The notes below the pieces were generated by a model. It searched no databases. It saw only the letters and a list, made by a program, of their open reading frames with translations, and was not told the DNA's origin. This document shows positions 150 to 42,756 of a DNA stretch of 64,000 nucleotides, one piece after another. Within the stretch, counting starts at the first letter, position 1; the number at the start of each line of letters is the position of its first letter. Both the position numbers and the translations under genes were made by a program. Origin of the DNA: a virus; the IMG/VR virus record IMGVR_UViG_3300032083_001576, positions 3,013 to 67,012 of that record, one strand, 5' to 3'.

Positions 150-377
150 TTATTTTACCTCTTGCCAATTTCCTGACTCTTGGACTATTCCAGCTATAGC
201 TTCGAACTCACTTTTTACTTCATTAAAAAGATTGATTTCATTATAATCACCATCAATATTTTTTGATTTTTTACCTTTTGGCACAAACACCGATTGGTCT
301 AATTTATCATACATTGAATCTAATGCGTTTTTGATTATCTGTATTTGGTCGTAACCTTCTTTACTTATCTTTGACAT
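150..377 (-). CDS. hypothetical protein
   Basis: 75 aa ORF overlapping its upstream neighbour, operon orientation. Confidence 0.7.
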   Translation of the reverse strand: MSKISKEGYDQIQIIKNALDSMYDKLDQSVFVPKGKKSKNIDGDYNEINLFNEVKSEFEAIAGIVQESGNWQEVK

Positions 378-576
378 CTCTGTCCTCCTGTAATAACTTT
401 TTTTCTGTTTCTTTTATTTTATCAATATCATCTTTTAAATGTTTATTAATAAATTCACTAACATCAACATTAAGTCTTTTTAATTCACTTAATGCTAATT
501 CTTTGACAAACTCTTCTTGTTCTGAATCCAAAACTGTTGTCATTAATTTTGTTATATAACTACCTAATTTATTCAT
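361..576 (-). CDS. hypothetical protein (helical, charged)
   Basis: 71 aa ORF overlapping neighbours. Confidence 0.7.
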   Translation of the reverse strand: MNKLGSYITKLMTTVLDSEQEEFVKELALSELKRLNVDVSEFINKHLKDDIDKIKETEKKLLQEDRDVKDK

Positions 577-1012
577 TTATTTGTATCCTTATATTATCTA
601 ACCATTGGTTATCATATTCATCATAATACACAACCCAAATGGTTGCAATCTGTCCTATGTTTTCTTCCATTACTCCCATCATTTGATAAGCGTAACCATC
701 ATCTGATGAATAACCACTACCATTAACAACAGGTATATCTTCACAAAAATCCCAAGTACAACCTTCAAAAGTCACATCAGTAACCCATTCTACATATTCA
801 TACTCATAACCAATGTATGCCCGTAATTGTGTAAATGTTTGTATAGAACCCTCATTAAAATCCAAATGATAAACACCATCTTTATCCATTGGTAAATCTG
901 GTGCTTCTATATTTAAATAACAATAATCACAGCTAGAATTTGGATTATCACAACCAATAAACAACATACTGATTATGTATATAAATATATATTTAATTAT
1001 ATTTCTCATCAT
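569..1012 (-). CDS. putative lipoprotein
   Basis: Basic N-terminus, hydrophobic stretch, lipobox-like FIG-C followed by DNPNS. Confidence 0.7.
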   Translation of the reverse strand: MMRNIIKYIFIYIISMLFIGCDNPNSSCDYCYLNIEAPDLPMDKDGVYHLDFNEGSIQTFTQLRAYIGYEYEYVEWVTDVTFEGCTWDFCEDIPVVNGSGYSSDDGYAYQMMGVMEENIGQIATIWVVYYDEYDNQWLDNIRIQINE

Positions 1013-15226: not shown

Positions 15227-15234
15227 AAATCTCC

Positions 15235-18473: not shown

Positions 18474-18494
18474 TATAACCTCCTGTTTTGTTTT

Positions 18495-21402: not shown

Positions 21403-22829
21403 TACACAACCTCCAATGTATATTGTTCTCTTGGTTTCCATTTCTCTAAACAAGTATCTATATTTTTAATAAATGATTCTGACATATGTTTAGCAGTCAT
21501 TCTACCTTCATTGTTTACAAATTGTCTTCCCAACTCACCACATCTTTTTCTTTCTTCAGGACCCACTTTATACCATTCTAATAATGCTTCACCTGCATCT
21601 TCATAACTACATCTATCATCAAAGATGTATGGTGTTAATGGTGAACCTTGACAACTTATGTTTGATGGAAAAACAGGTTTAACCCATTCACCATGATTCA
21701 CATAAGTTCCTCTGTGGTTAGATTGTAATTCAACATACTCTTCAGCAGTTAAATATTCACCTTTGTTGTTTTTAAATCCACATTGGTCTTGTAATCCACC
21801 TGTGACATTTACTACGATACAACCACCCGTATGTAACATCTCACAACTACCTAATCCAAATCCCTCATTGGAAGCCATATTGATATAAACATCACAAGAG
21901 TTAAACACAAAGTTCATTTCCTCATCATTAAACGAACCGTTAGGATGATTATCGTGTGTGAATATAACTGGATAATCAGGTAGAAGAGTTTTACACACAG
22001 CTCTCATATCAGTCCCATTCTCATCACTTGGAGCTGCATGCCAAACTAAACAACAATCTTTTCTTTTCTCTGGTGATAATTTATCCATCATATGTTTGTA
22101 AGCGAGAGCAACATCACCTGGTGATTTTCTTCTAATGTTACGATTTAAATATAAAACTTTAAATTTATATTTGTCTAATCCCATTTTTTGTTCAAATTCT
22201 CTAAACTTGGTGTCACCTTTATCTTGAATTTTGTGTATTCTTTTATCAGTTATTCCGTGAGGAACATAATCTGTTTGCCAATCTTCATAACCATATTTAG
22301 AAAGTATTCTTTTGTTAATACCATATGTTTGTTTTGATATTGACATTAACAAGTCTGAACTTCTATAATAGTTTGTATTGTATAATGGGTCTGGAATATC
22401 GTCCCAAATATTATAATACATAATAGGTATGTGTTGTCTTACTTCATGTTCCATATTATATAACCAAATCCAAAATCTTGGGTCTGTAAAGTGCATTATG
22501 ACATCTGGCTTTTCCATATCAAGAATTTGTCTTAACAATTGTGGATTACCGTAACCAGATATTGGATATATTTTTAGATATGCATCATCAATACCATATT
22601 CATTTTTTACAGCGTGACTCATATCTATGATTTTACCCTCTTCTGGATGTTTTACAGCACCACCTAATTGAACCCAATCGTATTTATGTAATGTTCCCAT
22701 CACAAATTCTTTTGACTGAGTGGCTATTCCACTGTGCATTCTCAAATCATCTGATAAAAGTAGAATCTTTTTCTTCTTTACTTTGTTTGGATTTGCTTTT
22801 TTTAATTTTGGAAGTTGAATTTGACTCAT
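21402..22829 (-). CDS. glycosyltransferase family 4
   Basis: SGIA, NRNIRRK, NEGFGLGSCE, TGGLQDQ. Confidence 0.9.
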   Translation of the reverse strand: MSQIQLPKLKKANPNKVKKKKILLLSDDLRMHSGIATQSKEFVMGTLHKYDWVQLGGAVKHPEEGKIIDMSHAVKNEYGIDDAYLKIYPISGYGNPQLLRQILDMEKPDVIMHFTDPRFWIWLYNMEHEVRQHIPIMYYNIWDDIPDPLYNTNYYRSSDLLMSISKQTYGINKRILSKYGYEDWQTDYVPHGITDKRIHKIQDKGDTKFREFEQKMGLDKYKFKVLYLNRNIRRKSPGDVALAYKHMMDKLSPEKRKDCCLVWHAAPSDENGTDMRAVCKTLLPDYPVIFTHDNHPNGSFNDEEMNFVFNSCDVYINMASNEGFGLGSCEMLHTGGCIVVNVTGGLQDQCGFKNNKGEYLTAEEYVELQSNHRGTYVNHGEWVKPVFPSNISCQGSPLTPYIFDDRCSYEDAGEALLEWYKVGPEERKRCGELGRQFVNNEGRMTAKHMSESFIKNIDTCLEKWKPREQYTLEVV

Positions 22830-23093: not shown

Positions 23094-23495
23094 CTATGAA
23101 ATAATTACTCTTTTTTTATCTAATTTTTTTGCATACTCTAATGTGTTTATAGTTCCTTTGGCCTCAACACCATTAGGTATGAATGCTACTATGAAGTCCG
23201 ATACACTAGCTATGATTTTATTTCTTACAAAAAAGTTTCTCATACTGAAATCTTTATTGTATCGAGATTCTGGTAATACGCAATATAAATTATGAACTTC
23301 GTGAAATGGTGGATACTCTTCGTATTGTAAACCTAATTCAAGTGTGTATTTCTTAGCGTATTTATCAGCTCCTTGTTTACAACCACCACTAACGATAATT
23401 GTATCATTACCATATTGTTGTTTTAATTTAAATACAAAATCTTTAATTTTCTTTTTGTTCTCATATCTTCTACTCCCTATCAATGCTACTCTCAT
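23094..23495 (-). CDS. SLOG (YspA/DprA-like) family protein
   Basis: IGSR, VSGGCKQGAD, RNKII, GT motifs. Confidence 0.8.
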   Translation of the reverse strand: MRVALIGSRRYENKKKIKDFVFKLKQQYGNDTIIVSGGCKQGADKYAKKYTLELGLQYEEYPPFHEVHNLYCVLPESRYNKDFSMRNFFVRNKIIASVSDFIVAFIPNGVEAKGTINTLEYAKKLDKKRVIIS

Positions 23496-24352
23496 TATAC
23501 TCCTACACTACAATATTCTGTATTTTTAAATTCACACCATTTACAAGCTTTCTTACTTGGTGTTGGTATAATGTTTTCTGATATTCGTTCACCCTTATCA
23601 TCAAACGCTAAATCCAAGAATGTATTTAATCTCTTAGCCACTTTGTTCATACTTACAGTACCACTCGCTGGTGAGAACTTCTGAACTCTCTTTTGTGGAA
23701 ACATTGCTTCTTCCCATAGTTTTCTTTTCACGATGAAGTATTCTACTTCTATGTTTTCAATCGGGTGATTGTATTGTTTAGCGTAGAATTGTTTATATAA
23801 TAATAATTGTTGAGTTTTGTTCTCATCTTTTTTCATCCATTTGTTCCAACCACGAGTAGATGTTTTAATATCATAGATTGTTATCGTATCAGTTCTTTCA
23901 TCCAATATAACTAAATCCAAGTAACCAACTATTTTAACATTCTTTTTTAAATCCACTTCAATTGGAACTTCACAACCAATTAACTTATATCCTCTTTTAC
24001 TGAAATAATCAGCTCTTCTCTTTTTAATAAAGTCCAATATATCCACACCATCTTGAAAGAACTCTCTCATCTCTTCTAATGTGCAAGGGTTCTTACCATA
24101 GGTTTCTTTATCTTGTTTAAACAACTCCATCATTTTGTCGTGTAGTCTTTGTTCAAGATTTAGTTTGTTTGCATTCTTCACACTATCGTGATACATAACT
24201 TCTAACCAAGTTTGTATAACTTCGTGCATTGCTGTTCCAAATAATAAATGAATACTTGGTTCTCGTTCTGTTATTTTATCAATGTAATTTAGTTTCCACC
24301 TTTGTGGGCATTCACTAAACATTGATAATTGTGAATATGATATTCTACCCAT
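23495..24352 (-). CDS. PD-(D/E)xK nuclease, Cas4/RecB-like with 4-Cys cluster
   Basis: SYSQ...CP, GTAMH, GYLD, DIKT, QLLLY, CKWC...C. Confidence 0.88.
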   Translation of the reverse strand: MGRISYSQLSMFSECPQRWKLNYIDKITEREPSIHLLFGTAMHEVIQTWLEVMYHDSVKNANKLNLEQRLHDKMMELFKQDKETYGKNPCTLEEMREFFQDGVDILDFIKKRRADYFSKRGYKLIGCEVPIEVDLKKNVKIVGYLDLVILDERTDTITIYDIKTSTRGWNKWMKKDENKTQQLLLYKQFYAKQYNHPIENIEVEYFIVKRKLWEEAMFPQKRVQKFSPASGTVSMNKVAKRLNTFLDLAFDDKGERISENIIPTPSKKACKWCEFKNTEYCSVGV

Positions 24353-25103
24353 AAAATCTCTCCTTTGATTCTACCTCTATTTTTTGTATTTCTGGATAGA
24401 ATTGATAAGCATCTTTTGGATAAGGTTTAGGTTTATGTATTAATGTATTCATAATCTTTTTCTTATCTTTCTTTCCACATAACAAATACAAGTATCTATG
24501 TTTTTCAGGTTCTTCTTTCCTCCAAAACGTATGTCCAATCTTTTTCTTTAATTTTTCTAAATTATGAGAACCAAACTTCGTTGTAACATTTCGTGAATGC
24601 ATCCACTTACCATCCTCTGTAAGTCGTATAGCATAATTAGGCATTAGTCGAATACTATTACCTTGATATATCCAATTCGTAGCTTGATAAATAATACCCA
24701 AGTGTCCTTGTTCCGGGTCTGAATAACTTACCAATACTTTTATCTCACTAGCGTTTTCCTTCAACCAATTGAATGTTTTGGATAAAACCACACTCTCTGT
24801 ATTCTTACCATAATCATCAAAGATAAATAACCTTGTTAACTCCAATACTTCTTCTTCTTTTAATTCAGGTGATATGGATTTAGGAGCACTTCTTCCAACA
24901 GGATAACCATAGATAGCCACACCCGCTAATTTTTCATCTTTCTCATCAAAGAATGAATGTTCGTTATCTGTTTCATAAAACACACCTAAAGCGTATCTAC
25001 AAGATGTCCACTTATGACTGTAATGATTCTTTACAATCATATCTTTGGCTATCTTCTTTGAGATTTCTCTTATGGTTATTTTATTTGGATTAATTGATGT
25101 CAA
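24345..25103 (-). CDS. mom: Mom-family (GNAT) DNA adenine-modification enzyme
   Basis: HYSH, ELTRL, NTES, SYSDPEQGHLGIIYQATNW, KHRY. Confidence 0.82.
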   Translation of the reverse strand: MTSINPNKITIREISKKIAKDMIVKNHYSHKWTSCRYALGVFYETDNEHSFFDEKDEKLAGVAIYGYPVGRSAPKSISPELKEEEVLELTRLFIFDDYGKNTESVVLSKTFNWLKENASEIKVLVSYSDPEQGHLGIIYQATNWIYQGNSIRLMPNYAIRLTEDGKWMHSRNVTTKFGSHNLEKLKKKIGHTFWRKEEPEKHRYLYLLCGKKDKKKIMNTLIHKPKPYPKDAYQFYPEIQKIEVESKERFYG

Positions 25104-25293
25104 AGTTTCTCTTTAATGTTTCTAAGTTTTCTTCAGCTTGTGATAAACTCTCTGTCCATTTCTTTACCTCAGTTAATAAATCTGAGTGTTCCCCAATCAT
25201 TGTAGCATCATTGAATAATAAATCCAAGTGAGCCAATGCTTCTGTTCTTTGTGCTTGATAACTATCTATTGCAGCTTGTATTAATTGATTCAT
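25090..25293 (-). CDS. hypothetical protein
   Basis: Helical ORF; start more likely at ATG 25293. Confidence 0.7.
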   Translation of the reverse strand: MNQLIQAAIDSYQAQRTEALAHLDLLFNDATMIGEHSDLLTEVKKWTESLSQAEENLETLKRNFDIN

Positions 25294-25294
25294 T

Positions 25295-25690
25295 TTATTT
25301 TCCCCATTTTCCATTCTTTACTATTGTAGCCATAATACCATAATTAGATACGTCCAAGTATGCATCTTCCAATGGTTCATCTACAGCCGTATCTTTATTC
25401 CCCATTAACAAAGTTTTTAACCTTTGTATTTTATCATTCATTCTAAACCACAATCCAGTTAATGATAACTTAATCTCATCATCTGTTGATAATTGTGTTC
25501 CAACTGAGATATTACCAGGACCATAATCGTGTTGTTTTCTACAAAACAATTCGTATTGTTCCCTTTGTAATCTTCTAAACTCACCAGTCATTTCAGGCCA
25601 TTCCTTTTCCATCTGTTCTACAATTGGGTGTTTAGTAACTGTTAAATCTGTTTCAGACATTGTTAAGTCGTTTTCTTTTATATTGCTCAC
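25295..25690 (-). CDS. DUF1599 / nucleotide-modification-associated (MazG-like fold) protein
   Basis: KQHDYG, RMNDKIQRL, EPLEDAYLDVSNYGIM. Confidence 0.75.
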   Translation of the reverse strand: MSNIKENDLTMSETDLTVTKHPIVEQMEKEWPEMTGEFRRLQREQYELFCRKQHDYGPGNISVGTQLSTDDEIKLSLTGLWFRMNDKIQRLKTLLMGNKDTAVDEPLEDAYLDVSNYGIMATIVKNGKWGK

Positions 25691-26106
25691 TTTAATAACC
25701 TCTTAATTGTTTTTTCATTCATTCCATATTTTTCTAATATTTCCATTAACTCATTTTTTGCAATTAAATCTAAATAATCTTTTACTTGTGATTTACTGCA
25801 TTCAAAATGTGTAACCATAATATCAATCAATTCCGTATTGTATTTCTTATCTTTCTTACCTTTAATATACTTATTGAATCTCTTACCTCTTGGTAACATA
25901 TCACAATACCACTTGTAAACTTCTTGTGGTTCTAATGTTCCAATAGAATACTTTTGAAAGTAATTCACAATTTCAAGAAAATCTTTATCCATTGACAACC
26001 AACGATTGATTATAAATGGGCTGAATTTCTTTTGTTCATCTTCTGTAAATTCATTCCAATGAGTTTTCTTTACAAGTATTTGATTTATCCAATCGAATAT
26101 TGTCAT
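25687..26106 (-). CDS. clamp loader small subunit (gp62-like)
   Basis: FDWIN, FIINRWLS, KYIK; near gp44/gp45. Confidence 0.65.
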   Translation of the reverse strand: MTIFDWINQILVKKTHWNEFTEDEQKKFSPFIINRWLSMDKDFLEIVNYFQKYSIGTLEPQEVYKWYCDMLPRGKRFNKYIKGKKDKKYNTELIDIMVTHFECSKSQVKDYLDLIAKNELMEILEKYGMNEKTIKRLLK

Positions 26107-26540: not shown

Positions 26541-26696
26541 TTATATCTCCCGTTTAATTTCTGTTATTGTAACATCTTTAGCTTTCCAATTCGTCTTAGA
26601 TAAAATTGTTTCATCATCGTAAGGTGGATTGTGTAATGTTATAATTAAGTCAGGTTTATCTACCCAATCTATATGTTCTATTTTAAATGTTTTCAT
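26541..26696 (-). CDS. hypothetical protein, 51 aa (MKTFKIEHIDWVDKPDL...)
   Basis: Fills the gap exactly, ATGA overlap with clamp loader stop; below ORF-track cutoff. Confidence 0.7.
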   Translation of the reverse strand: MKTFKIEHIDWVDKPDLIITLHNPPYDDETILSKTNWKAKDVTITEIKREI

Positions 26697-27598
26697 TTTA
26701 ATATCCTTATTAATCTAATTATTAGTGACATAAAGTTAATCTCTTTATCCACTACATTTACATCTTGGAATTGTGCTTCTGCGATATTCATAATACACTC
26801 AGCTTGTTTTCCCTTACCATAATTATCAACTTCATCATATAATAATCTAAATAATTCTGAATAATCTGAAATAGAATTATCAGCTATTAATTGTCTAATG
26901 TCATTTAGTTTAACACCACTTGTCAACATTTCTAACAATTGTAGTTTGTAATTATTCTGAATTACAGAGGTGGTATCAATCTTTAACTTACCATCAACGA
27001 TTTGTCTTTGAGCTGAATTAATAACTCTACGAATATCAGGATAACCTGCGTTCACTATCAAAGCTATATCATCAAGTTCAAATTGACAATTCTCTTGTGT
27101 TAAGATATTAACCATTTGTTGTGCAACCTCTTTTTTAGATGGTGGAACAACTTTGTATGATTGACATCTTGATTGGATTGGGTCTATGATTCTTTCTACA
27201 TAATTACAAGTAAGAATAAACCTACAATGTTTTGAAAATGTTTCCATTAGGTTTCTCAATGCAGCTTGTGCATTTGGTGTAAGATAATCACACTCGTCAA
27301 GTATAATTACTTTCAAGGATTTGAAACCAACAGATGAAGCAAATGTTTTGATTTTGTTTCTAACATCGTCAACTTTGTTCTCATCAGAAGCATTGATATA
27401 CATATAATCACAATCAATGTTAGATGTGATAATCTTCGCTAATGTTGTCTTACCAGTGCCAGCTTTACCAAAAAGTAAAAGATGAGGCACATCTTCTGAT
27501 TCAAGATATGCCTTCACTTTTTCTTTAAGATGCTCGTTACCTACATAAGTTGATAAGTCCGTTGGACGATATTTTTCTACCCATAATGAATGAGACAT
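26693..27598 (-). CDS. gp44: clamp loader AAA+ ATPase (gp44/RFC-like)
   Basis: WVEKYRP, GKAGTGKT, NASD, LDECD, SRC. Confidence 0.95.
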   Translation of the reverse strand: MSHSLWVEKYRPTDLSTYVGNEHLKEKVKAYLESEDVPHLLLFGKAGTGKTTLAKIITSNIDCDYMYINASDENKVDDVRNKIKTFASSVGFKSLKVIILDECDYLTPNAQAALRNLMETFSKHCRFILTCNYVERIIDPIQSRCQSYKVVPPSKKEVAQQMVNILTQENCQFELDDIALIVNAGYPDIRRVINSAQRQIVDGKLKIDTTSVIQNNYKLQLLEMLTSGVKLNDIRQLIADNSISDYSELFRLLYDEVDNYGKGKQAECIMNIAEAQFQDVNVVDKEINFMSLIIRLIRILK

Positions 27599-28317
27599 TA
27601 ATCTACATCCTGCATAGATACTATGTAATAAGTAGAATCAAAATCATCAATTTTGAAATTCACCCTAGCTAATCCCTCAGTTGAAACTTCAAGAATAGCT
27701 GATGAACATTCACGATTTGAAACCAACACTTCTTTAAAAAGATTAGCGTTGAATGTTATTGGTTTGTCAATATCACAACTATCACATTCTGTTGGGATGT
27801 TTACACGATTTGTATTCGTAGATGAATAACCAATCACAACATCACAACCATTGTTATTTTTTACAATTGAAAAAGTATCAACATCACTTAAAGCACCCTT
27901 ACCTTTGATGAATGTTGAAATGAAGTTTGAATCTAATTTAATCTTAGTGCCAAACTCTGGTAGTCTTTTCATTTGTGGTGGGTCGGATATAACTGATAAA
28001 TCACTTAATACATAATCCACAGATGTAGTTCCGTGTTTTATTTTAAGTGAAACAGCTTTATCACCGAATCTTGTTAAGTCTAATGAAACATCATCACCTA
28101 ACACATTTATCAAACTTTTTAATTGGTCGGTTTGATATACACCAATTTCAGCATCTTCAAATTGAAATCTATCAACTTTAACATTACCTAATAAAGACTT
28201 ATCAGGTGTGACAAATGATGTTGATATTGAATCACCACTTGATTTCCATTTTACTGAATTTACATTTCCACCCAAATTATACTTTTGAATGAATTTATCT
28301 AACTTACTTTTTTGCAT
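27598..28317 (-). CDS. gp45: sliding clamp (gp45-like)
   Basis: 239 aa beta-rich protein between polymerase and clamp loader. Confidence 0.7.
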   Translation of the reverse strand: MQKSKLDKFIQKYNLGGNVNSVKWKSSGDSISTSFVTPDKSLLGNVKVDRFQFEDAEIGVYQTDQLKSLINVLGDDVSLDLTRFGDKAVSLKIKHGTTSVDYVLSDLSVISDPPQMKRLPEFGTKIKLDSNFISTFIKGKGALSDVDTFSIVKNNNGCDVVIGYSSTNTNRVNIPTECDSCDIDKPITFNANLFKEVLVSNRECSSAILEVSTEGLARVNFKIDDFDSTYYIVSMQDVD

Positions 28318-28386: not shown

Positions 28387-30891
28387 TTAGAAAAACCTCT
28401 CTAATGTATTTGCTTTATCAACAGGCATATCCCATTTCAATGCCTCATAAAACATTCTGATTTTCTTTTCTAATGCTCTTGTGAATAATTTATCGTAATC
28501 TATGTTTTGTTCAATGAACTCCATAATCTTTGGTGGGTCATCATAACCTTTGAAAGCGATTTGTTTAATATTCATCGTGTTTGGTTTTAAATAAATCCAC
28601 TTAATCTTTTCTGATGATTTGATTTTCTCAAAGTTATTTAATCCCCAATACTTTAACAAATCATTGTAAACCCAAGCCGCTTTAACGTGAACAGGTGTTC
28701 CTTTCTTCATATTGGTAAACACAGCATCTCTTGGTGTTGAATCTTTGAACTTAGATAATTTTTTAACACCAGTTGGTAAAGAGATGTTCTGTATATCAGA
28801 TGTTTTCATTTCTTTCTTGAACTTCAATATCTTTTCATCAATCACATCTTTATCCACATCACCCAATATATCTTTCAATACTTGTGTCATCAAATCTCTC
28901 ATAGCTGGTGGGAATGAACTACGAACAATATCTAAACCTTTTACATCCAACTTATCACAAGTCAAACCACCATCGTTGATAATCCATTGTCCATATCTTT
29001 TCTTTGTAACCCAAAACGCTGACTTAGCCACACACTCTTGTTTAATATCAAATCTGTGTTCGTCACAATTTAGAAACTTTTTAGCGAACAAATTGTAAGA
29101 TTCATTGATATAATCTTGAACTACTTTCGCTGTTTCTAATATCTTTTCCGTCATAAATTTATCATCTGTCAAGTCAGCGTTTGGGAAATCTTTTTTAACC
29201 AATGGAACAGCCGAGTAAAATACTGAATCTGTATCTGTGTAAATACAATAATCCTCTTTATCTCCAAGCTTACCATTGTAATAACTATTAGCAATCTTCT
29301 CTGTAAATTTAATTAACTCTTGACCAGTTACAGTAGTGGCCTCTGCATTGTCCACATCATAGAATCTAAACACAGGTAATCCCAACACACCATAAAGTGA
29401 ATTTAATACAATCTTCTGAACGTGTTGTCTTCTTTTAAAGTATCCATGTTGTTCGTCATCACCCTCTTCACCATATTTCTTCATCAATCTTTTATACTCA
29501 ACTCTTTCATCAAACCACTTGGATAACAATGAAGGAATCAAACCTTTCTTATCATTACGATACAGAATACCATTTGAAGATATGGATACTTTGTTCTTTT
29601 CAAACATTTGTTTCAATTCTTCATTATTCATATGCCCTTGAGTTTTACCATTCTTTTCTAATGAATAAGTTTTATTCACACCTTTGATAAACTCCTCAGC
29701 ATTCCAACCATTCACTTTACCAATCTTCATCTCAGGTGAAATATTCAACGACATAATAACTGATGGATACATAGAGGTTAAATCCAAATCAAACACCCAA
29801 TTGTATTTACCAGGTTTAGGGTCTTTCACATAAGCACCTGTGAACTTGTCATCATCACTACGATTCATTTTTTCTCTAGCATCCAATGCTTTGTTTGGTG
29901 CAACTACTCCAATGTTTTGTAGATAAACCAAAATAGCACCCTCCAAGTATCTACTACTGAAAAATATGTCCTCATAAGGAACGTGTCCAACGTGAGCCAG
30001 TGCTTTAGCCAAATCAATAAACTTCAACTTGTCATCAAGTTTCTTAACAATAATAACGTCATTCAAGTTATATTCAATATACTTATCAATATCCGTTTCA
30101 TATAAATCTTGTAGTGTTCCTTCAAATTCTATCTTACCAAGTCCAACTTCTAATTGTCCAATGTAATCTAATCTATATGAGGATTGTTGTGTATAGGTAA
30201 ACCACTTGTAAAGTGATAAGTAATCCAAACAAGAAACACCAGCGATTTTAAATCTACGTTTATTCTCATTGTAATAAACTTCACCGATTGGTGATAATGC
30301 ATTTGCAAATGAATCACCCATAACTCGTTTAGTTCTATTGTATAAATAAGGAATATCAAATCCATCAATGTTCCAACCACTTAATATTGTTGGATTGATT
30401 TCAAGATATTTTTGATAAAATCTTTGTAGTAATTCTTCTTCTGAATGAAATGATTCTACGACATCTGTATTTGGAACATCACCTAAAACATAACAATGAT
30501 AGGAATCCATTGTTTTATCATATAGTGCAATAGCTGTAATCTTGTTCTCAGCTCTTTGTGGGTCTGGAAAACCATCCGTTACCTCACACTCAATATCAAA
30601 GAAAACTTCTCTATGTCCTACTGATGGCTCTTCTGAATCAGGATACATATCAACCAATGTTCTGGTTTCAATAGGAACGTCTGATTCAAACACTCTTCCG
30701 TTTTTAATATCATCACCAGTCCAAAAGTTTACTTTCTTTAACTTGTCACCATACAAGGAACGATATGTGCCTGTCTGTGATTTTAAGTACGCGTATGGTT
30801 TGTACTGAAACTTTTGATAACCTGTTTTATCATCCCAAAGATGAATTTCATTAGAAGTTTTACTTCTTTTAACATAAATGTTTTGATACAA
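28387..30891 (-). CDS. gp43: family B DNA polymerase (gp43-like)
   Basis: Exo DIE, GWNIDGFD, YNLND; DLTSMYPS, KIVLNSLYG, YTDTDS; C-terminal clamp-binding-like TLERFF. Confidence 0.97.
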   Translation of the reverse strand: MYQNIYVKRSKTSNEIHLWDDKTGYQKFQYKPYAYLKSQTGTYRSLYGDKLKKVNFWTGDDIKNGRVFESDVPIETRTLVDMYPDSEEPSVGHREVFFDIECEVTDGFPDPQRAENKITAIALYDKTMDSYHCYVLGDVPNTDVVESFHSEEELLQRFYQKYLEINPTILSGWNIDGFDIPYLYNRTKRVMGDSFANALSPIGEVYYNENKRRFKIAGVSCLDYLSLYKWFTYTQQSSYRLDYIGQLEVGLGKIEFEGTLQDLYETDIDKYIEYNLNDVIIVKKLDDKLKFIDLAKALAHVGHVPYEDIFFSSRYLEGAILVYLQNIGVVAPNKALDAREKMNRSDDDKFTGAYVKDPKPGKYNWVFDLDLTSMYPSVIMSLNISPEMKIGKVNGWNAEEFIKGVNKTYSLEKNGKTQGHMNNEELKQMFEKNKVSISSNGILYRNDKKGLIPSLLSKWFDERVEYKRLMKKYGEEGDDEQHGYFKRRQHVQKIVLNSLYGVLGLPVFRFYDVDNAEATTVTGQELIKFTEKIANSYYNGKLGDKEDYCIYTDTDSVFYSAVPLVKKDFPNADLTDDKFMTEKILETAKVVQDYINESYNLFAKKFLNCDEHRFDIKQECVAKSAFWVTKKRYGQWIINDGGLTCDKLDVKGLDIVRSSFPPAMRDLMTQVLKDILGDVDKDVIDEKILKFKKEMKTSDIQNISLPTGVKKLSKFKDSTPRDAVFTNMKKGTPVHVKAAWVYNDLLKYWGLNNFEKIKSSEKIKWIYLKPNTMNIKQIAFKGYDDPPKIMEFIEQNIDYDKLFTRALEKKIRMFYEALKWDMPVDKANTLERFF

Positions 30892-31815: not shown

Positions 31816-33672
31816 TTAGACTATTTCACAAACACCACCAGCACAAGCAAGTTCACCTTTTAAATCGGTATCATCTTGTTCTTCAGTAATTCGTGCTAAG
31901 TTGATGTTCTTTAGTGTTTCCACCATTTTGTCATAAGTTGCTTCTTCACAATCTTCAAATGGTGCTTGTTTATAAGTTCCACCATCATAAGGCAATATAC
32001 TTAATCCATTGTATGCTTTCTTATTTTTCCACATCCATTGTCCTATGTCTTCCCACTCGTGTTCTTTAACCGATATTGTTGCTGATACATTATGTGTATT
32101 CATTCCACTACGATGTCCTTTCTTGACATAATTCTCACTAATGAATTTTACTCTTTCCAATAATTGAAATGCTGATTCAGTTCTCATTGTCGCTCCCTCA
32201 GGTGCTTTCTGTGGAACTGATATGACAGCCGTGTCGTGTGGTCTAAAGTATTCATCTTCAACTAAATCAGGATGGTTTCTTAATAAATATCCATAAATAG
32301 CCTCATTCTTACCAACTCTAATTCTTCTAATATAGTAATCATTGTGCCAAGCGTGGATACCACTTGATGTTCCTAATGTTAATGATGTTGTTCCAGCAGG
32401 TTTTACCGTTGTACATCTTGCAGCTGGTTTGACACCAATTAATTCTGCCACTCTTTTGTTTTCTTCTTTTACTACGTTAGCAGCTTCTGTTACATCCAAG
32501 TCATCTAATTTATTAGAAGCGATTCCAGTCATTGATACTCCAATTAGGGCATCCTTTTGTGTTGTTCTTTCCCATACAGGTCTTAAATAATGAAAGTCTG
32601 TATAACCAGCTTGTAGTGTTCCAATGAATGCACCAGCCTTTACTCTTTCATTTAAGTCTTCTTGTGATTCAACATTTGAGACATTCACTTCTGTTAAATT
32701 ACAGAATTGATATGGACGTAGTGCGATTTCACAACAAGGATTAGTTCCCCAATCTTTATCATTGGTTAGATAAATACCTGGCTCTCCACTACCACTCGCT
32801 TTAATTTTTTCCCATAATTCAAAGAAAAACTCTTCTGTAATTTTAGAACGAACCAAAGCAGCTGAATTGTTTGCTCTACCTCTTTGTGGATTTGTTTCCC
32901 ACCAATTTCCATACTTACAAGAAATCATTGAGTCATCATCTGCTGAGAATAATGAAATCAAAGCTGCTCTTCTAATACCACCAGCCAACACAGCGTCTGC
33001 TATGTGACATACAATATCGTGAACTTCTAATGTGGTTAATTTATCACCATTGTCTTTTGTTCTCAATATACCATCAATCTTAACCAAACACTCTTTTAAT
33101 GGTTGAGGACCTGGCGCTTTACCACCACTTGTTACTAACTCCGCACCCTTTGGACGAATATCTGAAAAGTCAAATGTAATGTGTGAACCACCATAAAAAT
33201 AAGATTTAATCAATACTTTAACTGAATCAGCCCAACCTTCAATGGAATCACTAATTAAATATCTTCTTCTTCTTTTAAAATTTGGTAAATGTATTTCAGG
33301 TAATTGTTCAACGTGATGTCTTTGAACTGAATAACCAACACCTGTTCCACCCAATAATAAAAACATAACTTCCGAGAATGATTGCCAATTATCAATTGGT
33401 AGAAATGCACAATTATAAACTCTGTTTGGTGATATTTCAATTGGTTTACCAGCAAACTGCATACTCCTCATTGATGGTAATACTTTTTTATCCAACACCA
33501 TTTTATAAGCTTTATCTATTTGTGATTTTAATTCTGGATATTTCTTGATGTGCATTTGTTTATTTCTTTCCACCAATTCTTTCCACGTTTCTCTTCTTTT
33601 TTTCTCAGGTAAATACCTTGCGTATTTCATATAGACAGTAATGTCCGACAATATTTTCGTTGAAATATCCAT
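31816..33672 (-). CDS. nrdJ: class II (B12-dependent) ribonucleoside-triphosphate reductase
   Basis: TNPCCEI, KPAGT, C-terminal CAGGVC; no small-subunit gene adjacent. Confidence 0.92.
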   Translation of the reverse strand: MDISTKILSDITVYMKYARYLPEKKRRETWKELVERNKQMHIKKYPELKSQIDKAYKMVLDKKVLPSMRSMQFAGKPIEISPNRVYNCAFLPIDNWQSFSEVMFLLLGGTGVGYSVQRHHVEQLPEIHLPNFKRRRRYLISDSIEGWADSVKVLIKSYFYGGSHITFDFSDIRPKGAELVTSGGKAPGPQPLKECLVKIDGILRTKDNGDKLTTLEVHDIVCHIADAVLAGGIRRAALISLFSADDDSMISCKYGNWWETNPQRGRANNSAALVRSKITEEFFFELWEKIKASGSGEPGIYLTNDKDWGTNPCCEIALRPYQFCNLTEVNVSNVESQEDLNERVKAGAFIGTLQAGYTDFHYLRPVWERTTQKDALIGVSMTGIASNKLDDLDVTEAANVVKEENKRVAELIGVKPAARCTTVKPAGTTSLTLGTSSGIHAWHNDYYIRRIRVGKNEAIYGYLLRNHPDLVEDEYFRPHDTAVISVPQKAPEGATMRTESAFQLLERVKFISENYVKKGHRSGMNTHNVSATISVKEHEWEDIGQWMWKNKKAYNGLSILPYDGGTYKQAPFEDCEEATYDKMVETLKNINLARITEEQDDTDLKGELACAGGVCEIV

Positions 33673-33887: not shown

Positions 33888-34072
33888 TATTCATTCTCCC
33901 AAGCTTCATTTACATTAGGTGTAGATTTATCATCACCTCTGAATGTACCATCTGCTTTTCTAGCTCTTTTTCTTTTCTTTGGTTTTGGTTTTTCTTCTTT
34001 TCCAAAAACAAAATCACTTAACTCTTGAACCCATTCTTGAAATACTTGTAAGTCTGTTTTTTGTTTACTCAT
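33887..34072 (-). CDS. small hypothetical protein with RARxxxGxFxxDDxSTPxVNEAW motif
   Basis: 61 aa ORF overlapping helicase stop. Confidence 0.7.
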   Translation of the reverse strand: MSKQKTDLQVFQEWVQELSDFVFGKEEKPKPKKRKRARKADGTFRGDDKSTPNVNEAWENE

Positions 34073-35417
34073 TCATTAAATCCTCATATCTATTTGATAA
34101 CATTTTTTTCATTAAGTTATCTCTGTTATCTATTTTAGTTTGTTGTTCTTTACCACCAACAGAATTACCCTCATAGATTTCCATTTTACCAGTGTTGGTA
34201 TTTACCTTTGCTGGAAATGTCATACCATCAGGACCAAATCTGTTTTTAATTACATGGAATCTACCCGTGTTACCAATCTTATCTTCCACTTTTCTACTTA
34301 ATGACATCACAAAATCTGCTGTCATAATCTTTTGATATGATTCAGATACTTTCTGTGCCTCAATCACATCTTCATCTAATGCTGAACGATTAGCTTGTGA
34401 AGCCGTCCAAACAGGTATTTGAAACTCACCTGCAAGTCCTCTTAAATCTTCATAAATATTACCAAGTGCATGTCTGACTTCTCTTGAATTACCTGTATCT
34501 TTCAATATATCAGCATAATCCACAACCACCATATCTACTTGAGTTCCTAATGTTGTGATTCTTTTCAAGTGAGCTGATAAGGTATTCACACTAGCAGACT
34601 TGGTTGGATAATATTTAATAACCAAATCACCTTTTAATTTATCCATTTCTGATTGAACATCTTCTTTGTGATATTTTAGATTTTGATTTGCAATACCTGT
34701 AAAGATTGAATCATATCTTAGTCCCACATAAGATTCATTTAACTCAAGTGAGTAATGAACTATGTGTTTTCCTCTCTTCATCGCATTTGCACCAATAGCC
34801 GCTAACACCCAAGTCTTACCAACACCAGCAGGTGCAACAATCACACCAAGTTCACCACCACCCAATCCACCTTGAGTCAAGTCATCAATCACTTCCCAAC
34901 CAGTTTCAACTGTTGAACGAGCAGTTTCTGAGTATCTATCTTCAATGTGTTGAATGTATTCGTGTCCAATGTTTCTTTCTGTTCCTGCATTTAAAGCATC
35001 ATCTACTAATCTTTTAATTTGTTCAAAGTCACCTTTGGATTCCATAATTTCAACCGATTGAACAATTGCACTTTTCAATGTTTGATTTTTGAAAAAGTCT
35101 AATGCTTTGTCTTCAATGAAATCTAAATCAGGTGATTCCAAATGTCTAAACACCTCTTTTAGATTTTCAATGATTGATAATTTCAATACATCATTTTCAA
35201 CCTCTTGTGTTTTGACTTTAAATACATCAAGTGTAATACACTTTCTATATTCATCATAATATTTCTTACATTCTTTTACAACCCATTTTAGAGCGTCACT
35301 ATCAAAATGTTTTTCATCCAATATATCGTGTATTTGTTCTAAAAAGGTTTGATTCTTCATTAATGCAGAAATGGATTTTATCTGAAATGTATGTCCGAAA
35401 TCTGTTAATTTATCCAT
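34065..35417 (-). CDS. gp41: replicative DNA helicase (gp41/DnaB-like)
   Basis: APAGVGKT, SLEL, VVDYAD, TASQANR, KNRFG. Confidence 0.95.
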   Translation of the reverse strand: MDKLTDFGHTFQIKSISALMKNQTFLEQIHDILDEKHFDSDALKWVVKECKKYYDEYRKCITLDVFKVKTQEVENDVLKLSIIENLKEVFRHLESPDLDFIEDKALDFFKNQTLKSAIVQSVEIMESKGDFEQIKRLVDDALNAGTERNIGHEYIQHIEDRYSETARSTVETGWEVIDDLTQGGLGGGELGVIVAPAGVGKTWVLAAIGANAMKRGKHIVHYSLELNESYVGLRYDSIFTGIANQNLKYHKEDVQSEMDKLKGDLVIKYYPTKSASVNTLSAHLKRITTLGTQVDMVVVDYADILKDTGNSREVRHALGNIYEDLRGLAGEFQIPVWTASQANRSALDEDVIEAQKVSESYQKIMTADFVMSLSRKVEDKIGNTGRFHVIKNRFGPDGMTFPAKVNTNTGKMEIYEGNSVGGKEQQTKIDNRDNLMKKMLSNRYEDLMNE

Positions 35418-36474
35418 TCAATCCTCTAAATCTATCTAATCTTGTAAACTCCATAATCCAACTATCAAAGTTTTTTATATTAGATTGTAACTTATCCTTT
35501 ATAAACATTGTTTGAAATCTATACTTAACCAATTGTGGAACTTTACCATTCACCGCTCCTTGTATCTTCATTTTTGTATGATTCGGTATATCCACTTTAT
35601 TTAATTGCATTAGTAAATAATTTCGTTTAATAATATTACTACTTTTTTTTATATTTTCCAAGAGTTTTATTTTAGAATCTGTATTTTCTACAAAATTTAA
35701 TAAATCCATAGCTGTGAAATCTTCATCTTCTGTTAATTGTGGAATATATTTTATTAAGGATTTCAAACCAGCTCCTAGTACTCCGTTGATATTATCTGAT
35801 TTATCCCCATCCAAGATTCTATATGTTAACATATTTCTTGATGGTATTCCAAACTCTTCCAATACTGCTTGTTTATTATATAACTTCTTTTTCGTAGGAC
35901 TCCATACTTTCACTCTATCATCTACTAATTGTAAGAAGTCTTTATCTGTTGACATCAATATACAATCACTTTCTGGTAGTAATTGTTGTGAGATGTAAGC
36001 CATTGTGTCGTCTGCTTCAATTCCATCAACTGACACAAGTGTTAATGGTAATTGTTCCAAGTATTCAATCAATCTACCCATTTGTTGTCTCATAGATTGT
36101 TGTTCATCGGCTGGAGCTGTTCCCCAATCCACATTACGATTCAATCTACGTTTAACTTTACGAGTTCCTTTATACTCTGGAAAAATCTTTCTTCTTCTTT
36201 TACTTCCACCTTTTCCGTCAAATACAATGATACATCTTGATGGTTTCAATATATCACAACTATATCTAACTGATTTCATAAAACCAACCATACCACCAAT
36301 ATGTAATCCATCTTCATTTAACGCAGGATTAACTGCGAATGACCTGATAAATGTATTCAGGCCATCCACAATCAATACTCTGTCGTTAAGATGATTTACA
36401 GCTTTGTGTGTATCATCTTTTGTTTGGTCTAAAAAAGATAAATATTTTTCATTTAAATCTTTTTTAGAGTTCAT
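35410..36474 (-). CDS. 5'-3' exonuclease / RNase H (FEN-like)
   Basis: VDGLN, FDG, YKGTR, EADD, STDKDFLQL, GDKSDNI. Confidence 0.93.
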   Translation of the reverse strand: MNSKKDLNEKYLSFLDQTKDDTHKAVNHLNDRVLIVDGLNTFIRSFAVNPALNEDGLHIGGMVGFMKSVRYSCDILKPSRCIIVFDGKGGSKRRRKIFPEYKGTRKVKRRLNRNVDWGTAPADEQQSMRQQMGRLIEYLEQLPLTLVSVDGIEADDTMAYISQQLLPESDCILMSTDKDFLQLVDDRVKVWSPTKKKLYNKQAVLEEFGIPSRNMLTYRILDGDKSDNINGVLGAGLKSLIKYIPQLTEDEDFTAMDLLNFVENTDSKIKLLENIKKSSNIIKRNYLLMQLNKVDIPNHTKMKIQGAVNGKVPQLVKYRFQTMFIKDKLQSNIKNFDSWIMEFTRLDRFRGLNG

Positions 36475-37582
36475 CCACTACCTCATCGGTTTCTTCCACA
36501 TCATCAATACCAAGTTCTTGTGAATCATATTTTAGAATACAAGCTTCACAGATTCTTGAATAACAATACTCTCTGAGTTCATCATTAGTATTCATTAATT
36601 CTTCGAAATCTTTTGATTGAAATTTGTGTTCTTTAATTAATTCACCAGTTTCAGTATCAATCTGTGGTAATGTATACCAAGAACCACCAACTTTACAGAT
36701 TTTGTGTTCTTTCATTACAGTTAACCAACTATCAAAATCAGCGATACCTTTATCAAAATACAATGGAAACTCTGCAGTTCTCATTGGTGGACCAAGACGA
36801 TTCTTAATCACCTGTCCTTTGATTTTAATACCGATGGTGTTCTTACTACCATCTTTGATTTGTCCAGCGTTTTTGAACCTAACACGAGTCGATGAATGAA
36901 ACGGTAGAGCTTTACCACCTGATGTAGTCCAGGGGTCTCCAAACATTACACCTAACTTTTGTCTTAACTGATTAGTGAAAACAAGTGCGACTTTTTGTCT
37001 AGCAATCATTTGAGTTATTTTTCTCATAGCTTTTGATATGATGATTGCTTTGGCCGTAGCCCAACCATCTTTATCAAAGTCAGCGTCCATTTCTACTTTC
37101 GTAGAAGCAGCTGCTAATGAGTCAACTAAAATAGTTACTAACTTGTCCTTATTTGATTCTCTGATTTTAGTAACAATCGTTTCAATAGTATCAAATATTT
37201 CTTCAACAGTTTCCAAGTGAACATATAACATTTTCTTAGTATCCACACCAATAGCTCTCAAAAATTCTTGAGATACTGCTGATTCGGTATCTATGTAAAC
37301 TGCTATACCATCTTTTCTTTGTGTTGAAGCCAATAAATGAGAACCTATCAAAGACTTACCACTACCTTCCAAACCATTCAATTCTGTTATTTTACCTACA
37401 CCAATACCTCCATTAGGTCTATTGGAAATAGCTAAATCTAACATTGTTGAACCTGTTGAAATGAAATCCGTCACATCAGTTGGATTACTATCTTCTTCTA
37501 AGAAGTATGCAACTTGTTGATGTTTGAATTGTTTATTCAGTTCATCGGCAATTATCCCAGCCAATTCGTCTTTTTCTGACAT
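36464..37582 (-). CDS. uvsX: RecA/UvsX recombinase
   Basis: GLEGSGKS, YIDTE, VDSLAA, NQLR, SGGKAL, KNR. Confidence 0.95.
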   Translation of the reverse strand: MSEKDELAGIIADELNKQFKHQQVAYFLEEDSNPTDVTDFISTGSTMLDLAISNRPNGGIGVGKITELNGLEGSGKSLIGSHLLASTQRKDGIAVYIDTESAVSQEFLRAIGVDTKKMLYVHLETVEEIFDTIETIVTKIRESNKDKLVTILVDSLAAASTKVEMDADFDKDGWATAKAIIISKAMRKITQMIARQKVALVFTNQLRQKLGVMFGDPWTTSGGKALPFHSSTRVRFKNAGQIKDGSKNTIGIKIKGQVIKNRLGPPMRTAEFPLYFDKGIADFDSWLTVMKEHKICKVGGSWYTLPQIDTETGELIKEHKFQSKDFEELMNTNDELREYCYSRICEACILKYDSQELGIDDVEETDEVVDEL

Positions 37583-37603: not shown

Positions 37604-38368
37604 TTAATTATTAAATAAGTTATCAAATGCGTCTGAAACATCTGCTGTAGATTTAGTAGCTGTTTGTTCAGCAACTTTCTCAGTAGTGTTTGTTGGAGCA
37701 CTTTCTTCAGAATCATCAGATGGGTTTAGAAAGTTTTGTAAAACTTCTTTCAACTCATCATAAGTTGGTTCATTATAAAGTTCTGTTAAATCAGACTGAT
37801 TTTCAAAGATACCTTTTAACATGTCAGCATCTTCTGTGATAGCAGTTTGATTAGGTTTAACTCTTACAGTAGTTTTACCATATTGGTTACCAGCTTCAGC
37901 AGGTGTTTGTCTATCGATACCAATATCTCTACCATTAGTAGCATCTGTGATGTCACCATAATCAGGGTCAGCAATTACACTAAGTAATTCTTGATATACA
38001 GTTTTACCGAATCCCCAAAATTTAACACCTTCAGATTCTTTACCACGAACTACAACTGGTGCAAAAGTTCTCATTTTAGGTTCAAGTCTTTTACCTTGAA
38101 TCCATTCGTCTTTATTACCTGTTGATTTTAGTTTGTCAGCAAATTCAGCTACTGGGTCTGGTCTTCCAAATGAAAGAGGTGAAAGGTAAGTTTTATTATT
38201 ACCTAAGTTATAATGAAAGAATAACTCAATGAATGGGTTATCTTTATTATGTTTGTAAGGGACAATACGAACAACTTGTTGACCTGGTTCAGGCTTCCAA
38301 AAGTTATCTTTGGTGTTTGAAGTTGATTGTAATGTTGCGAGTTTGGATTTTATAGCGTTTATATCCAT
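37604..38368 (-). CDS. gp32: single-stranded DNA-binding protein (gp32-like)
   Basis: FWKP...VRIVP, DPV, WGFGKTVY, GDITD; acidic C-tail ending DAFDNLFNN. Confidence 0.85.
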   Translation of the reverse strand: MDINAIKSKLATLQSTSNTKDNFWKPEPGQQVVRIVPYKHNKDNPFIELFFHYNLGNNKTYLSPLSFGRPDPVAEFADKLKSTGNKDEWIQGKRLEPKMRTFAPVVVRGKESEGVKFWGFGKTVYQELLSVIADPDYGDITDATNGRDIGIDRQTPAEAGNQYGKTTVRVKPNQTAITEDADMLKGIFENQSDLTELYNEPTYDELKEVLQNFLNPSDDSEESAPTNTTEKVAEQTATKSTADVSDAFDNLFNN

Positions 38369-41432: not shown

Positions 41433-42710
41433 TTATAACCTTTCCGTAATGTCTTGCATTTCACCATAGTTTAAACCCATTTTTGATTTGGTGTAAAAAT
41501 AAGGTTCTGTATCACCTGGTACATCGGTTTTAACTTCTAATATTCTTTTGATTTCTTTCAAAGTTTCAACTCCATCTTGTTTTGAAAAATCGAATAGGAA
41601 ACTATCGTATCCGTATAAAACCAATTTAGTCTTTTTGTTTAATAAATATTCTTGAATTAATAAAATCTTTCTAACATTCAATTCTGTTTCTAATGCTTGA
41701 ATTAAATAATTAAATAATTTATTTTTATTCAAATCATCATAATTTTCTAATATTATTCTCCGTCTATAAATATCAGTTAAAATGTATTTATTTTGATTTA
41801 TTTCATTCCATTTGTCATTTATATAATTATATGTTTTATCAAAAAATGGAACTTTTTCTCTTGTTTGTTTGTCAATTCCACCATATAATAATTGGAAACT
41901 TTTTTGTTTTGATTCCTCATATGAACATTCATAATGTTTAGCCAAGTGTTCGTGAACTGATTCTTTACCAAAATCATATTTAACCAATTGTGAAATTATT
42001 CTTAAATGGTATGCATCATAATCCATTTCAACTAAATAATCATTTTCAGCCACTATAGCTTTTCTCTTTTCAGGTGGTAGAGCTGCAAAGTTAACCGTAC
42101 CAAATGAATTACTTGGACGACCTGTTGTTGTCCATAGATTGTAATTTGAATATAATTTTTCATTCGATATATGTTTTCTTACTCGTTCATCAAATATGTC
42201 ACATATGTCATTTGATACCTTTACACCATTTTTTTCAATACTCCAAAACGCTTCTGTGAAATCATTCATATAATAATCATCAGTATGTCCAGCTTCATAA
42301 GGTATATTGATTTCATTAAAAACATCGTTACAATACTCATTATGTTTAGATAATGGTATGATTTCGTTAAGTTTTTTTACATTGTAGTATTTGTTACTCA
42401 AGAAATCTATTGCATTATTACGAATATTGTTCTCAAATGGTTTACCTGTATTTATCCAATGTAAGAAATTCATATCCACAACATTATTGAATTTATAAAA
42501 ATGATTCAATAGTTTTTTATCACGAGTTAAAATCATATAATCATTTAACCACTTGTAATCTTCCATCATTTTATCTGAATCAGGATGGTGTTGGATTAAA
42601 AAGAATGGTTCTTTTTTAGATATTTCTTTACACCATAGAGCGGATAATACATTATCTTTATGTAATGGATGTAAGAATGGTTCTTTAAATATTGGAATAA
42701 TACAATACAT
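41433..42710 (-). CDS. atypical family A DNA polymerase (short)
   Basis: TTTGRPSN, motif A DYDAYHLR, motif B KQKSFQLLYG, NYLIQ, motif C YDSF. Confidence 0.85.
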   Translation of the reverse strand: MYCIIPIFKEPFLHPLHKDNVLSALWCKEISKKEPFFLIQHHPDSDKMMEDYKWLNDYMILTRDKKLLNHFYKFNNVVDMNFLHWINTGKPFENNIRNNAIDFLSNKYYNVKKLNEIIPLSKHNEYCNDVFNEINIPYEAGHTDDYYMNDFTEAFWSIEKNGVKVSNDICDIFDERVRKHISNEKLYSNYNLWTTTGRPSNSFGTVNFAALPPEKRKAIVAENDYLVEMDYDAYHLRIISQLVKYDFGKESVHEHLAKHYECSYEESKQKSFQLLYGGIDKQTREKVPFFDKTYNYINDKWNEINQNKYILTDIYRRRIILENYDDLNKNKLFNYLIQALETELNVRKILLIQEYLLNKKTKLVLYGYDSFLFDFSKQDGVETLKEIKRILEVKTDVPGDTEPYFYTKSKMGLNYGEMQDITERL

Positions 42711-42718
42711 CGTATTAC

Positions 42719-42747
42719 AATATATAACATTTTATTTAAAAAAACAA
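42719..42747 (-). promoter_or_regulatory. early-type promoter AAGC-TTGTTT-N17-TATATT, near-leaderless
   Basis: Variant of the repeated motif; -10 ends 8 nt before the ATG, no SD. Confidence 0.6.
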
Positions 42748-42756
42748 GCTTTTTTT

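Follow-up and report, generated by a model that had tools for sequence, protein, structure and literature searches.

The 64,000-nucleotide stretch of viral DNA analyzed here (hereafter the window), which derives from IMG/VR record IMGVR_UViG_3300032083_001576, was found to encode on its minus strand a 425-aa polymerase of family A that is almost certainly a member of the divPolA1 family. Judged from the sequence and its conservation, this protein is probably an active family-A nucleotidyl transferase that is conserved across its family and lacks both proofreading and a thumb, and, taking identity and function together, we lean toward a compact divPolA1 enzyme with a short-patch role. The finding is real but of modest novelty, the family having already been named; the small additions made here are a His at the steric gate throughout the family, an obligatory small neighboring gene termed p131, and a leaderless-type start. 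The source record comprises 67,012 bases and is estimated to be about 36% complete, which would correspond to a full genome of roughly 186 kb. The long open reading frames (ORFs) of the window all lie on the minus strand, and a T4-type capsid protein (Gp23), a tail sheath and a baseplate protein were identified in the record by Pfam. A megablast search with 20 kb of the window against a phage collection matched nothing.

The best annotated relative of the polymerase was gp1 of Flavobacterium phage vB_FspM_immuto (hereafter immuto), annotated as "DNA polymerase family A" (tblastn, 33.7% identity over 89% of the query, E 5e-57), and the next ones belonged to an uncultured 484-kb phage and to Microcystis phage Mel-JY01. 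This gp1 is the prototype of divPolA1, a family named in 2024 on the basis of sequence analysis (Yutin, Tolstoy, Mutz, Wolf, Krupovic and Koonin, Virol J 21:200, PMC11348598). In that paper, divPolA1 is described from immuto and 13 related phages of 155-190 kb (14 in all) and is characterized as an extra PolA that accompanies a regular polymerase, whether of family A, B or C, having conserved palm residues, a truncated thumb and an exonuclease domain inactivated by replacement of the catalytic aspartates. Replication genes are conserved downstream of it, and from this context the authors proposed a role in replication (PMC11348598). The window shares with this description the extra polymerase, the conserved palm, the truncated thumb and the downstream gene order, and its estimated genome size of about 186 kb falls within the range given. 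In immuto, the regular PolA gave a DNA_pol_A score of 191.6 bits, and gp1 gave weak DNA_pol_A matches only. PHROGs and NCBIfam searches returned no family for the window protein.

A text search of PMC11348598 found neither "steric" nor "ribonucleotide", and "primase" only in other contexts, with no gate His or divPolA1 primase in the passages searched; nor is the linked small gene described in the divPolA1 section. Among the headings of the 19 clusters into which a 2023 reclassification divides PolA, none matched divPolA1. The family was revealed to be large: among 7999 scored candidates from metagenomes, at least 3695 clusters (90% identity) were matched at E <= 0.001, and a 50%-identity library contained 1093 representatives at E <= 0.001, 788 at 1e-10 and 402 at 1e-30. 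Full-length members were nearly all 410-470 aa long.

Conservation was assessed in an alignment (A1) of 133 sequences, made up of the query and 132 of the 150 50%-identity representatives listed, from which 18 fragment rows of 191-399 aa had been excluded; the members are diverse, sharing only 28-57% identity with the query. When searched against the PDB, the A1 profile matched 58 distinct sequences at E <= 0.01, all of them named DNA polymerases, and the best match was Klenow (E 5.7e-10). The TGR motif and motifs A, B, C and 6 could all be aligned to Klenow. As for the fold, the AlphaFold2 model (predicted local distance difference test, pLDDT, 94.9; predicted TM-score, pTM, 0.93) retrieved with Foldseek, among the matches listed (ranks to 50), only family-A DNA polymerases, namely Pol I, KlenTaq, Bst, Pol theta, Pol nu and apicoplast Pol. 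VIA-align placed model residues 1..420 on residues 304..832 of KlenTaq chain 4n56_A with a Z score of 26.8 (root-mean-square deviation, rmsd, 3.5; 354 residues aligned) and on Bst 315..876 with a Z of about 26; the overall fold was the same as that of Klenow, KlenTaq and the Bst large fragment, at a Z of about 26. The first-pass annotation of this DNA had proposed a second, atypical family-A polymerase beside a family-B polymerase (PolB), and the profile match to Klenow, the fold and the presence of PolB in the same window all bear this out.

Both active-site motifs on which that proposal had been built, DYDAYHLR and YDSF, were recovered in the 425-aa ORF. Motif A reads LVEMDYDAYHLR over residues 226-237, with DYDAYHLR as its core, and motif C reads YGYDSF over residues 366-371. 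In the profile alignment, H235 was paired with E710 of Klenow, Y264 with R754, K268 with K758, F272 with F762, Y276 with Y766, and the Tyr-Asp-Ser of motif C with H881-D882-E883, while R198 and Q338 fell at the positions of R668 and Q849 of Pol I. R198, N207, D230, K268, Q338, E341 and D369 were invariant across A1, so that each of the catalytic Asp residues, D230 and D369, was present in 133/133 sequences. At position 235, the steric-gate Glu of family A was absent: the residue was His in 132 sequences and Phe in one. The retention of both catalytic Asp residues together with a His in place of the gate Glu, as stated in the first-pass annotation, was thus corroborated by the pairing with E710, and the variation of this His among homologues, which had been named as grounds for dropping the idea, was not seen.

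F272 and Y276 were each kept in 129 of the 133 sequences and Y368 in 132, whereas residue 370 was Ser in 106, Ala in 24 and Gly in 3; the expected conservation of Tyr-Asp-Ser therefore holds for its Tyr and Asp and fails for its Ser. Residue 264 was Tyr in 93, Ile in 19 and Arg in 8. The cultured relatives have the same pocket, immuto gp1 carrying DFDGYHLR and YDA, and Mel-JY01 carrying DYDAFHIK and YDA. Relative to Klenow, then, E710 is replaced by His, R754 by Tyr, H881 by Tyr, and E883 by Ser or Ala. As read from the alignment, this rewired nucleotide pocket, with Tyr-Asp-Ser/Ala standing for His-Asp-Glu, is a fixed trait of the family.

Replacement of these canonical residues (R754, E710, H881 and E883) could be taken to mean that the protein is a catalytically dead scaffold. 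Nevertheless, the metal-binding Asp pair, the O-helix Lys, R198 and Q338 are all invariant among sequences as distant as 28-57% identity to the query, and we regard a dead scaffold as barely credible.

A likeness to T7 RNA polymerase, which had been read from motif C, gained little backing from the matches listed. T7-type single-subunit RNA polymerases, whose motif C is H-D-S, do have a small residue after the motif C Asp, as in divPolA1. However, the Ser of the motif is not fixed in the family, no RNA polymerase appeared among the profile matches (58 PDB sequences) or fold matches listed (50 each), all of those listed being DNA polymerases, and a Pfam search of the protein at E <= 0.1 gave no RNA polymerase family. 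Because this Ser is variable and the sugar-pocket residues F272 and Y276 are kept, the argument for an RNA-polymerase-like enzyme or for ribonucleotide use is weakened. A related case is divPolA2, for which the 2024 paper describes an unrelated N-terminal domain, a variable context and RNA polymerase fold matches (PMC11348598). The window protein resembles divPolA2 in that its PolA palm has diverged strongly and a normal thumb is missing, and differs from it in that its own matches listed were to DNA polymerases only.

Since model residues 1..420 span the large fragments of KlenTaq and Bst, the N-terminal 140 or so residues correspond to their exonuclease-like domain. The sequence D-x-E occurs once in the whole protein, at residue 400, and not in the N-terminal domain, in agreement with the proofreading motif having been reported as lacking. 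The N-terminal positions conserved in the family are H14, H42, D/E44 and D79, which by eye resemble structural positions rather than catalytic carboxylates of the Pol I exonuclease domain; E125 is also conserved as an acidic residue. Compared with Pol I, divPolA1 is without both the exonuclease D-x-E and the 5' nuclease domain, and a flap endonuclease (FEN) is encoded by a separate gene. In the profile alignment, Klenow chain residues 235 to 325 were skipped while the profile advanced by four positions (199 to 204), and this skip of about 90 Klenow residues indicated that the thumb is missing, leaving the stub given in Table 1. Within A1, the clade of the window lacks the first ~20 residues (a strand and a helix, consensus M-x-I-I-E) that are present in most members, and its shortened N-terminus has the start placed just after a promoter-like box.

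Table 1. Location of the polymerase gene, its parts and the neighboring genes in the window, in window coordinates.
Feature	Residues	Coordinates	Strand	Content or basis
divPolA1 gene		41433..42710	-	425-aa ORF: exonuclease-like N-terminal domain, thumb stub, palm, fingers
Intergenic region		42711..42756	-	TTGTTT 42742-42747, 17-nt spacer, TATATT 42719-42724, 8 nt to ATG
Vestigial 3'-5' exonuclease-like domain	1 to about 140	42291..42710	-	Superposition, secondary structure of model
Thumb stub	about 166-189	42144..42215	-	Profile alignment gap and two short model helices
Motif A	226-238	41997..42035	-	D230 and H235 (codon 42006-42008); H235 at Klenow E710 position
Motif B / O-helix	264-278	41877..41921	-	Y264 (R754 position), K268, F272, Y276
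Motif C	364-374	41589..41621	-	Y368-D369-S370 replacing H-D-E
p533, 533 aa		39831..41432	-	Directly after divPolA1 stop codon; phrog_1462 (function unknown), E 9.8e-18
p131, 131 aa		39436..39831	-	Linked downstream of divPolA1; locus survey
Thioredoxin-fold protein, 181 aa		38874-39419	-	Between p131 and gp32
gp32-like single-stranded DNA-binding protein (SSB)		37604-38368	-	Pfam
RecA/UvsX		36464-37582	-	Pfam
5'-3' exonuclease/FEN		35410-36474	-	Pfam
DnaB-like helicase		34065-35417	-	Pfam
Ribonucleotide reductase (RNR)		31816-33672	-	B12-dependent (class II) insertion domain
PolB, 834 aa, with exonuclease domain		28387-30891	-	PF00136, E 4.8e-37
239-aa ORF between PolB and clamp loader		27598-28317	-	Position only
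Clamp-loader AAA+ subunit		26693-27598	-	Pfam
Clamp-loader A subunit		25687-26106	-	Pfam
Modification-looking cluster		23094-25690	-	SLOG/DprA-like 133 aa; PD-(D/E)XK nuclease 285 aa; Mom-family 252 aa, E 1.4e-52; DUF1599 "nucleotide modification associated" 131 aa
Sugar-chemistry run		12712-22829	-	GFO/IDH/MocA-FAD oxidoreductase fusion 590 aa; Methyltransf_24 protein 452 aa; two group-1 glycosyltransferase-like proteins, 464 and 475 aa

The surroundings of the gene were surveyed in 80 IMG/VR loci (593 of 599 pattern matches encode divPolA1 relatives). The order divPolA1, small genes, SSB, RecA, FEN, DnaB, RNR was the same in the window, immuto and Mel-JY01, and the succession of SSB, RecA, FEN and DnaB was also kept in the IMG/VR loci. 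Where enough DNA was available to judge, the genes for gp32, RecA and FEN were found downstream on the same strand in 25/26, 33/35 and 24/26 loci, respectively. On the upstream side, a tail-module gene, p1084, was kept in 46 of the 47 loci having at least 3 kb of upstream DNA, and in immuto the tail and baseplate module lies upstream of gp1; the replication module therefore begins with divPolA1. The RNR of the window, which has a class II insertion domain, occupies the place where immuto encodes NrdA/NrdF, the RNR type being swapped inside an otherwise conserved array. A complete set of PolB, clamp and clamp loader had also been claimed for this DNA, and Pfam supported PolB and the clamp loader. 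The clamp was assigned by position only: the 239-aa ORF lying between the two, for which neither Pfam nor NCBIfam gave a family match, is probably the sliding clamp.

The closest tie to the polymerase was displayed by p131. Each of the 67 loci whose downstream DNA extends for 2283 bp or more has a homologue there on the same strand, the other 13, which have none, being limited to 2258 bp or less; where gp32 lies several kb farther away, the homologue still remains close to the polymerase. The window protein is 42% identical to immuto gp2 and 34% identical to a 129-aa protein of Mel-JY01. In an alignment (A2) of p131 with 61 homologues, left from the 67 after removal of two that were truncated and four that looked like duplicates, the residues H69-R70-K71-K72, N75, Y78, N81, N84, N91 and G93 were invariant. 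The p131 model (pLDDT 94.3) has an alpha/beta structure, for which Foldseek found no match in the PDB at E <= 0.001 and the Atlas offered no usable match. An ACT-like fold was considered for residues 1-68 and rejected, the best match of a wide VIA search (Z 6.8, 64 residues aligned, rmsd 2.1) being under the level that separates real from common arrangements. Complex prediction for divPolA1 with p131 gave a score of 0.00 and a mark of 0.32, which is evidence neither way. On the strength of its constant linkage, p131 may be an accessory subunit. The 181-aa protein encoded between p131 and gp32 has a thioredoxin fold, contains a CxxC motif and ends in a long C-terminal extension, and its gene was seen only in the 15 closest loci; in T7 DNA polymerase, thioredoxin serves as the processivity factor.

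A family-A polymerase with a small partner gene recalls the CcPol-MP or PolA-SSB primases carried by staphylococcal cassette chromosome mec (SCCmec) as well as by other mobile elements of Firmicutes (Bebel et al. 2020, PMC7581432; Rice 2022, bioRxiv 10.1101/2022.12.02.518924). CcPol-MP is the only proven PolA-type primase, it retains E710 and F762, and its product is DNA; divPolA1 is like it in that its exonuclease domain is reduced and its thumb short, a small conserved gene follows it and the operon also encodes a helicase. The idea of the first-pass annotation that the enzyme, perhaps with p131, might be a primase-like initiator, a phage analogue of CcPol-MP making de novo starts or using ribonucleotides, finds agreement in the gate change from Glu to His (132/133), in the truncated thumb and reduced exonuclease domain as described for CcPol, in p131 always lying downstream, in the DnaB-type helicase of the same array and in the place of divPolA1 at the head of the replication module. 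Nevertheless, because CcPol keeps E710 and F762 and makes DNA primers, priming by a PolA needs no changed gate. The partner MP of CcPol, by the same sources, is an oligonucleotide/oligosaccharide-binding (OB) fold, whereas p131 was modelled as alpha/beta, with an ACT-like best match (Z 6.8) and not as an OB fold. Furthermore, F272 and Y276, which are typical of DNA polymerases, are kept in divPolA1. The gate change itself speaks less for ribonucleotide use than it may seem, a His being about as bulky as a Glu.

The initiator idea had also leaned on the lack of a primase gene. Indeed, no match to Toprim_2 or to the DnaG zinc ribbon was found in the 67-kb record, but the argument fails because the record is only ~36% complete and two complete relatives carry DnaG-type signatures elsewhere in their genomes: immuto has an annotated DnaG primase (104402-105322) with Toprim_2 and DnaG zinc-ribbon matches, and Mel-JY01 has a 333-aa ORF matching Toprim_2 weakly (17.1 bits, below the cut-off). 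In contrast to CcPol-MP, divPolA1 thus occurs in phages that also bear a DnaG-type primase signature, clear in immuto and weak in Mel-JY01, and does not replace the conventional primase in these relatives. Taken together, a primase-like initiator of this kind appears decidedly unlikely, and we consider it very improbable that divPolA1, alone or with p131, is not primer-extending at all and instead initiates de novo and/or incorporates ribonucleotides by way of its His gate. If the initiator reading were true, large aquatic phages would own a DnaG-independent family-A priming or RNA-DNA synthesis step.

The start of the gene is set apart from most of its neighbors. Bases 42711-42747, which the first-pass annotation had included with the gene, are a promoter-like region upstream of the ORF (Table 1). 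A Shine-Dalgarno-like motif, typically TAGGAGAA, was found for 48 of the 59 window genes, and divPolA1 was among the 11 without one. Among 66 distinct upstream regions from relatives (loci L008-L087), 24 contain a strict -10 hexamer whose end falls 4-9 nt ahead of the start, compared with 10 among the 685 other same-strand ORFs in these loci and 1 among the 59 window genes, which is divPolA1 itself; many of the remaining relatives have AAGG about 6 nt before the start instead. Since the box, lying 5-8 nt ahead of the start codon, recurs in these relatives, the near-leaderless geometry that had been proposed for this promoter is plausible and constitutes a recurrent trait of part of the family, and it suggests that the gene opening the replication module has an mRNA with no leader or a very short one. 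A sigma-70 scan was uninformative (32 sites versus 38.1 expected) and missed the upstream element, TTGTTT, which matches at 3/6 positions. Short assembled contigs from four metatranscriptome libraries (studies P2 and P4), 90-99% alike, covered divPolA1, p533 and p131, DNA carry-over being possible; such contigs show neither start nor transcription, and their thin cover upstream of 42750 proves nothing.

In comparison with immuto, the window carries the extra gene p533 as a variable insert between divPolA1 and p131. Homologues were located downstream of the polymerase in 53 of the 80 loci, at a median offset of 5 nt, and were absent from immuto-like loci. Pfam gave sub-threshold matches at chance level only (E about 0.01) and NCBIfam nothing; a weak lead is the resemblance of p533 to HpaII/HaeIII-type restriction endonucleases, the nearest named Atlas clusters (score 0.84). 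Just downstream of the clamp-loader genes lies the modification-looking cluster of Table 1, from which the phage DNA may contain a modified base. The run of sugar-chemistry genes listed in the last row was also observed; these may act on the DNA, the virion or the surface of the host.

Such modification genes bring in another reading, namely that divPolA1 is a lesion- or modification-tolerant, exonuclease-free polymerase, similar to Pol theta or Pol nu, which copies modified or damaged phage DNA that the proofreading PolB handles poorly. The Mom-family (E 1.4e-52) and DUF1599 genes of the window and QueC in immuto are in line with it, as are the missing proofreading motif, the rewired nucleotide pocket and the occurrence of Pol theta and Pol nu among the fold matches listed. 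Modification genes vary among the relatives, however, while divPolA1 is constant, and its synteny is with the core replication and recombination genes, not with modification genes. In addition, Pol theta and Pol nu have retained both the gate Glu and a complete thumb. We therefore hold a tolerance polymerase to be unlikely.

The constancy of the array could also mean that divPolA1 is the principal replicative polymerase of the module, acting for example on the lagging strand or near the origin, with a processivity partner in place of the thumb. The regular polymerase varies between families A, B and C while divPolA1 and its replication neighborhood stay constant, as the 2024 paper describes (PMC11348598), and divPolA1 is followed by p131 and, in 15 loci, by the thioredoxin-fold gene. 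Against this, PolB and the clamp loader stand in the same array in the window, and an enzyme without thumb and proofreading would be a poor candidate for copying the roughly 186 kb estimated for this genome. Such a principal replicase seems very unlikely.

The reading that we favor on balance is accordingly that of a compact divPolA1 enzyme performing short-patch synthesis. Its palm and fingers active site is intact, its exonuclease-like N-terminal domain is putatively dead, and it has almost no thumb; lacking a thumb, the enzyme should be distributive. It leads the replication and recombination array behind a promoter-like element of its own, and its carriers are large T4-type aquatic myoviruses equipped with a regular replicase, here PolB with the clamp loader. 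Because it is encoded together with FEN, SSB and UvsX while PolB and the clamp loader are present, short-patch synthesis is the economical reading: the enzyme may carry out distributive, short-patch, template-directed DNA synthesis, its DNA polymerase activity being presumed. One conceivable task would be gap filling at Okazaki-fragment junctions in concert with the separately encoded FEN, the two forming in effect a split Pol I; an alternative task would be the extension of UvsX/gp32 recombination intermediates. Bulk replication by divPolA1 would be unlikely. As to the specific role, short-patch synthesis is put forward tentatively, as an assignment with somewhat less than an even chance of being right.

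Several points weigh against this picture. Phage T4 matures its Okazaki fragments without a second polymerase, and the need for divPolA1 is for that reason left unexplained. A short-patch role likewise leaves the universally linked p131 unexplained. The residues with which Pol I selects the sugar, binds the triphosphate and supports the metal are replaced by His235, Tyr264 and Ser370, and activity or substrate could therefore differ from those of a normal DNA polymerase. In the Pfam search, DNA_pol_A (PF00476) matched residues 194-398 of the 425-aa protein with 26.1 bits, short of the cut-off of 34.3. A literature search for "divPolA1" returned only the 2024 paper and its preprint, with no biochemistry of any member. 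Finally, divPolA1 in some genomes has a more replicative-looking context than the regular polymerase does, as its describers point out (PMC11348598), and a more central role would be in keeping with this.

With these reservations, the compact enzyme outlined above is of interest in its own right: as a natural Pol I-type enzyme without thumb, proofreading and canonical gate, divPolA1 offers a ready test of what those elements contribute, and it would be of practical interest if its His gate relaxes the choice of sugar or nucleotide. The family to which it belongs is very common in aquatic viromes and, throughout an entire group of large phages, holds a fixed place as the leading gene of the replication module.

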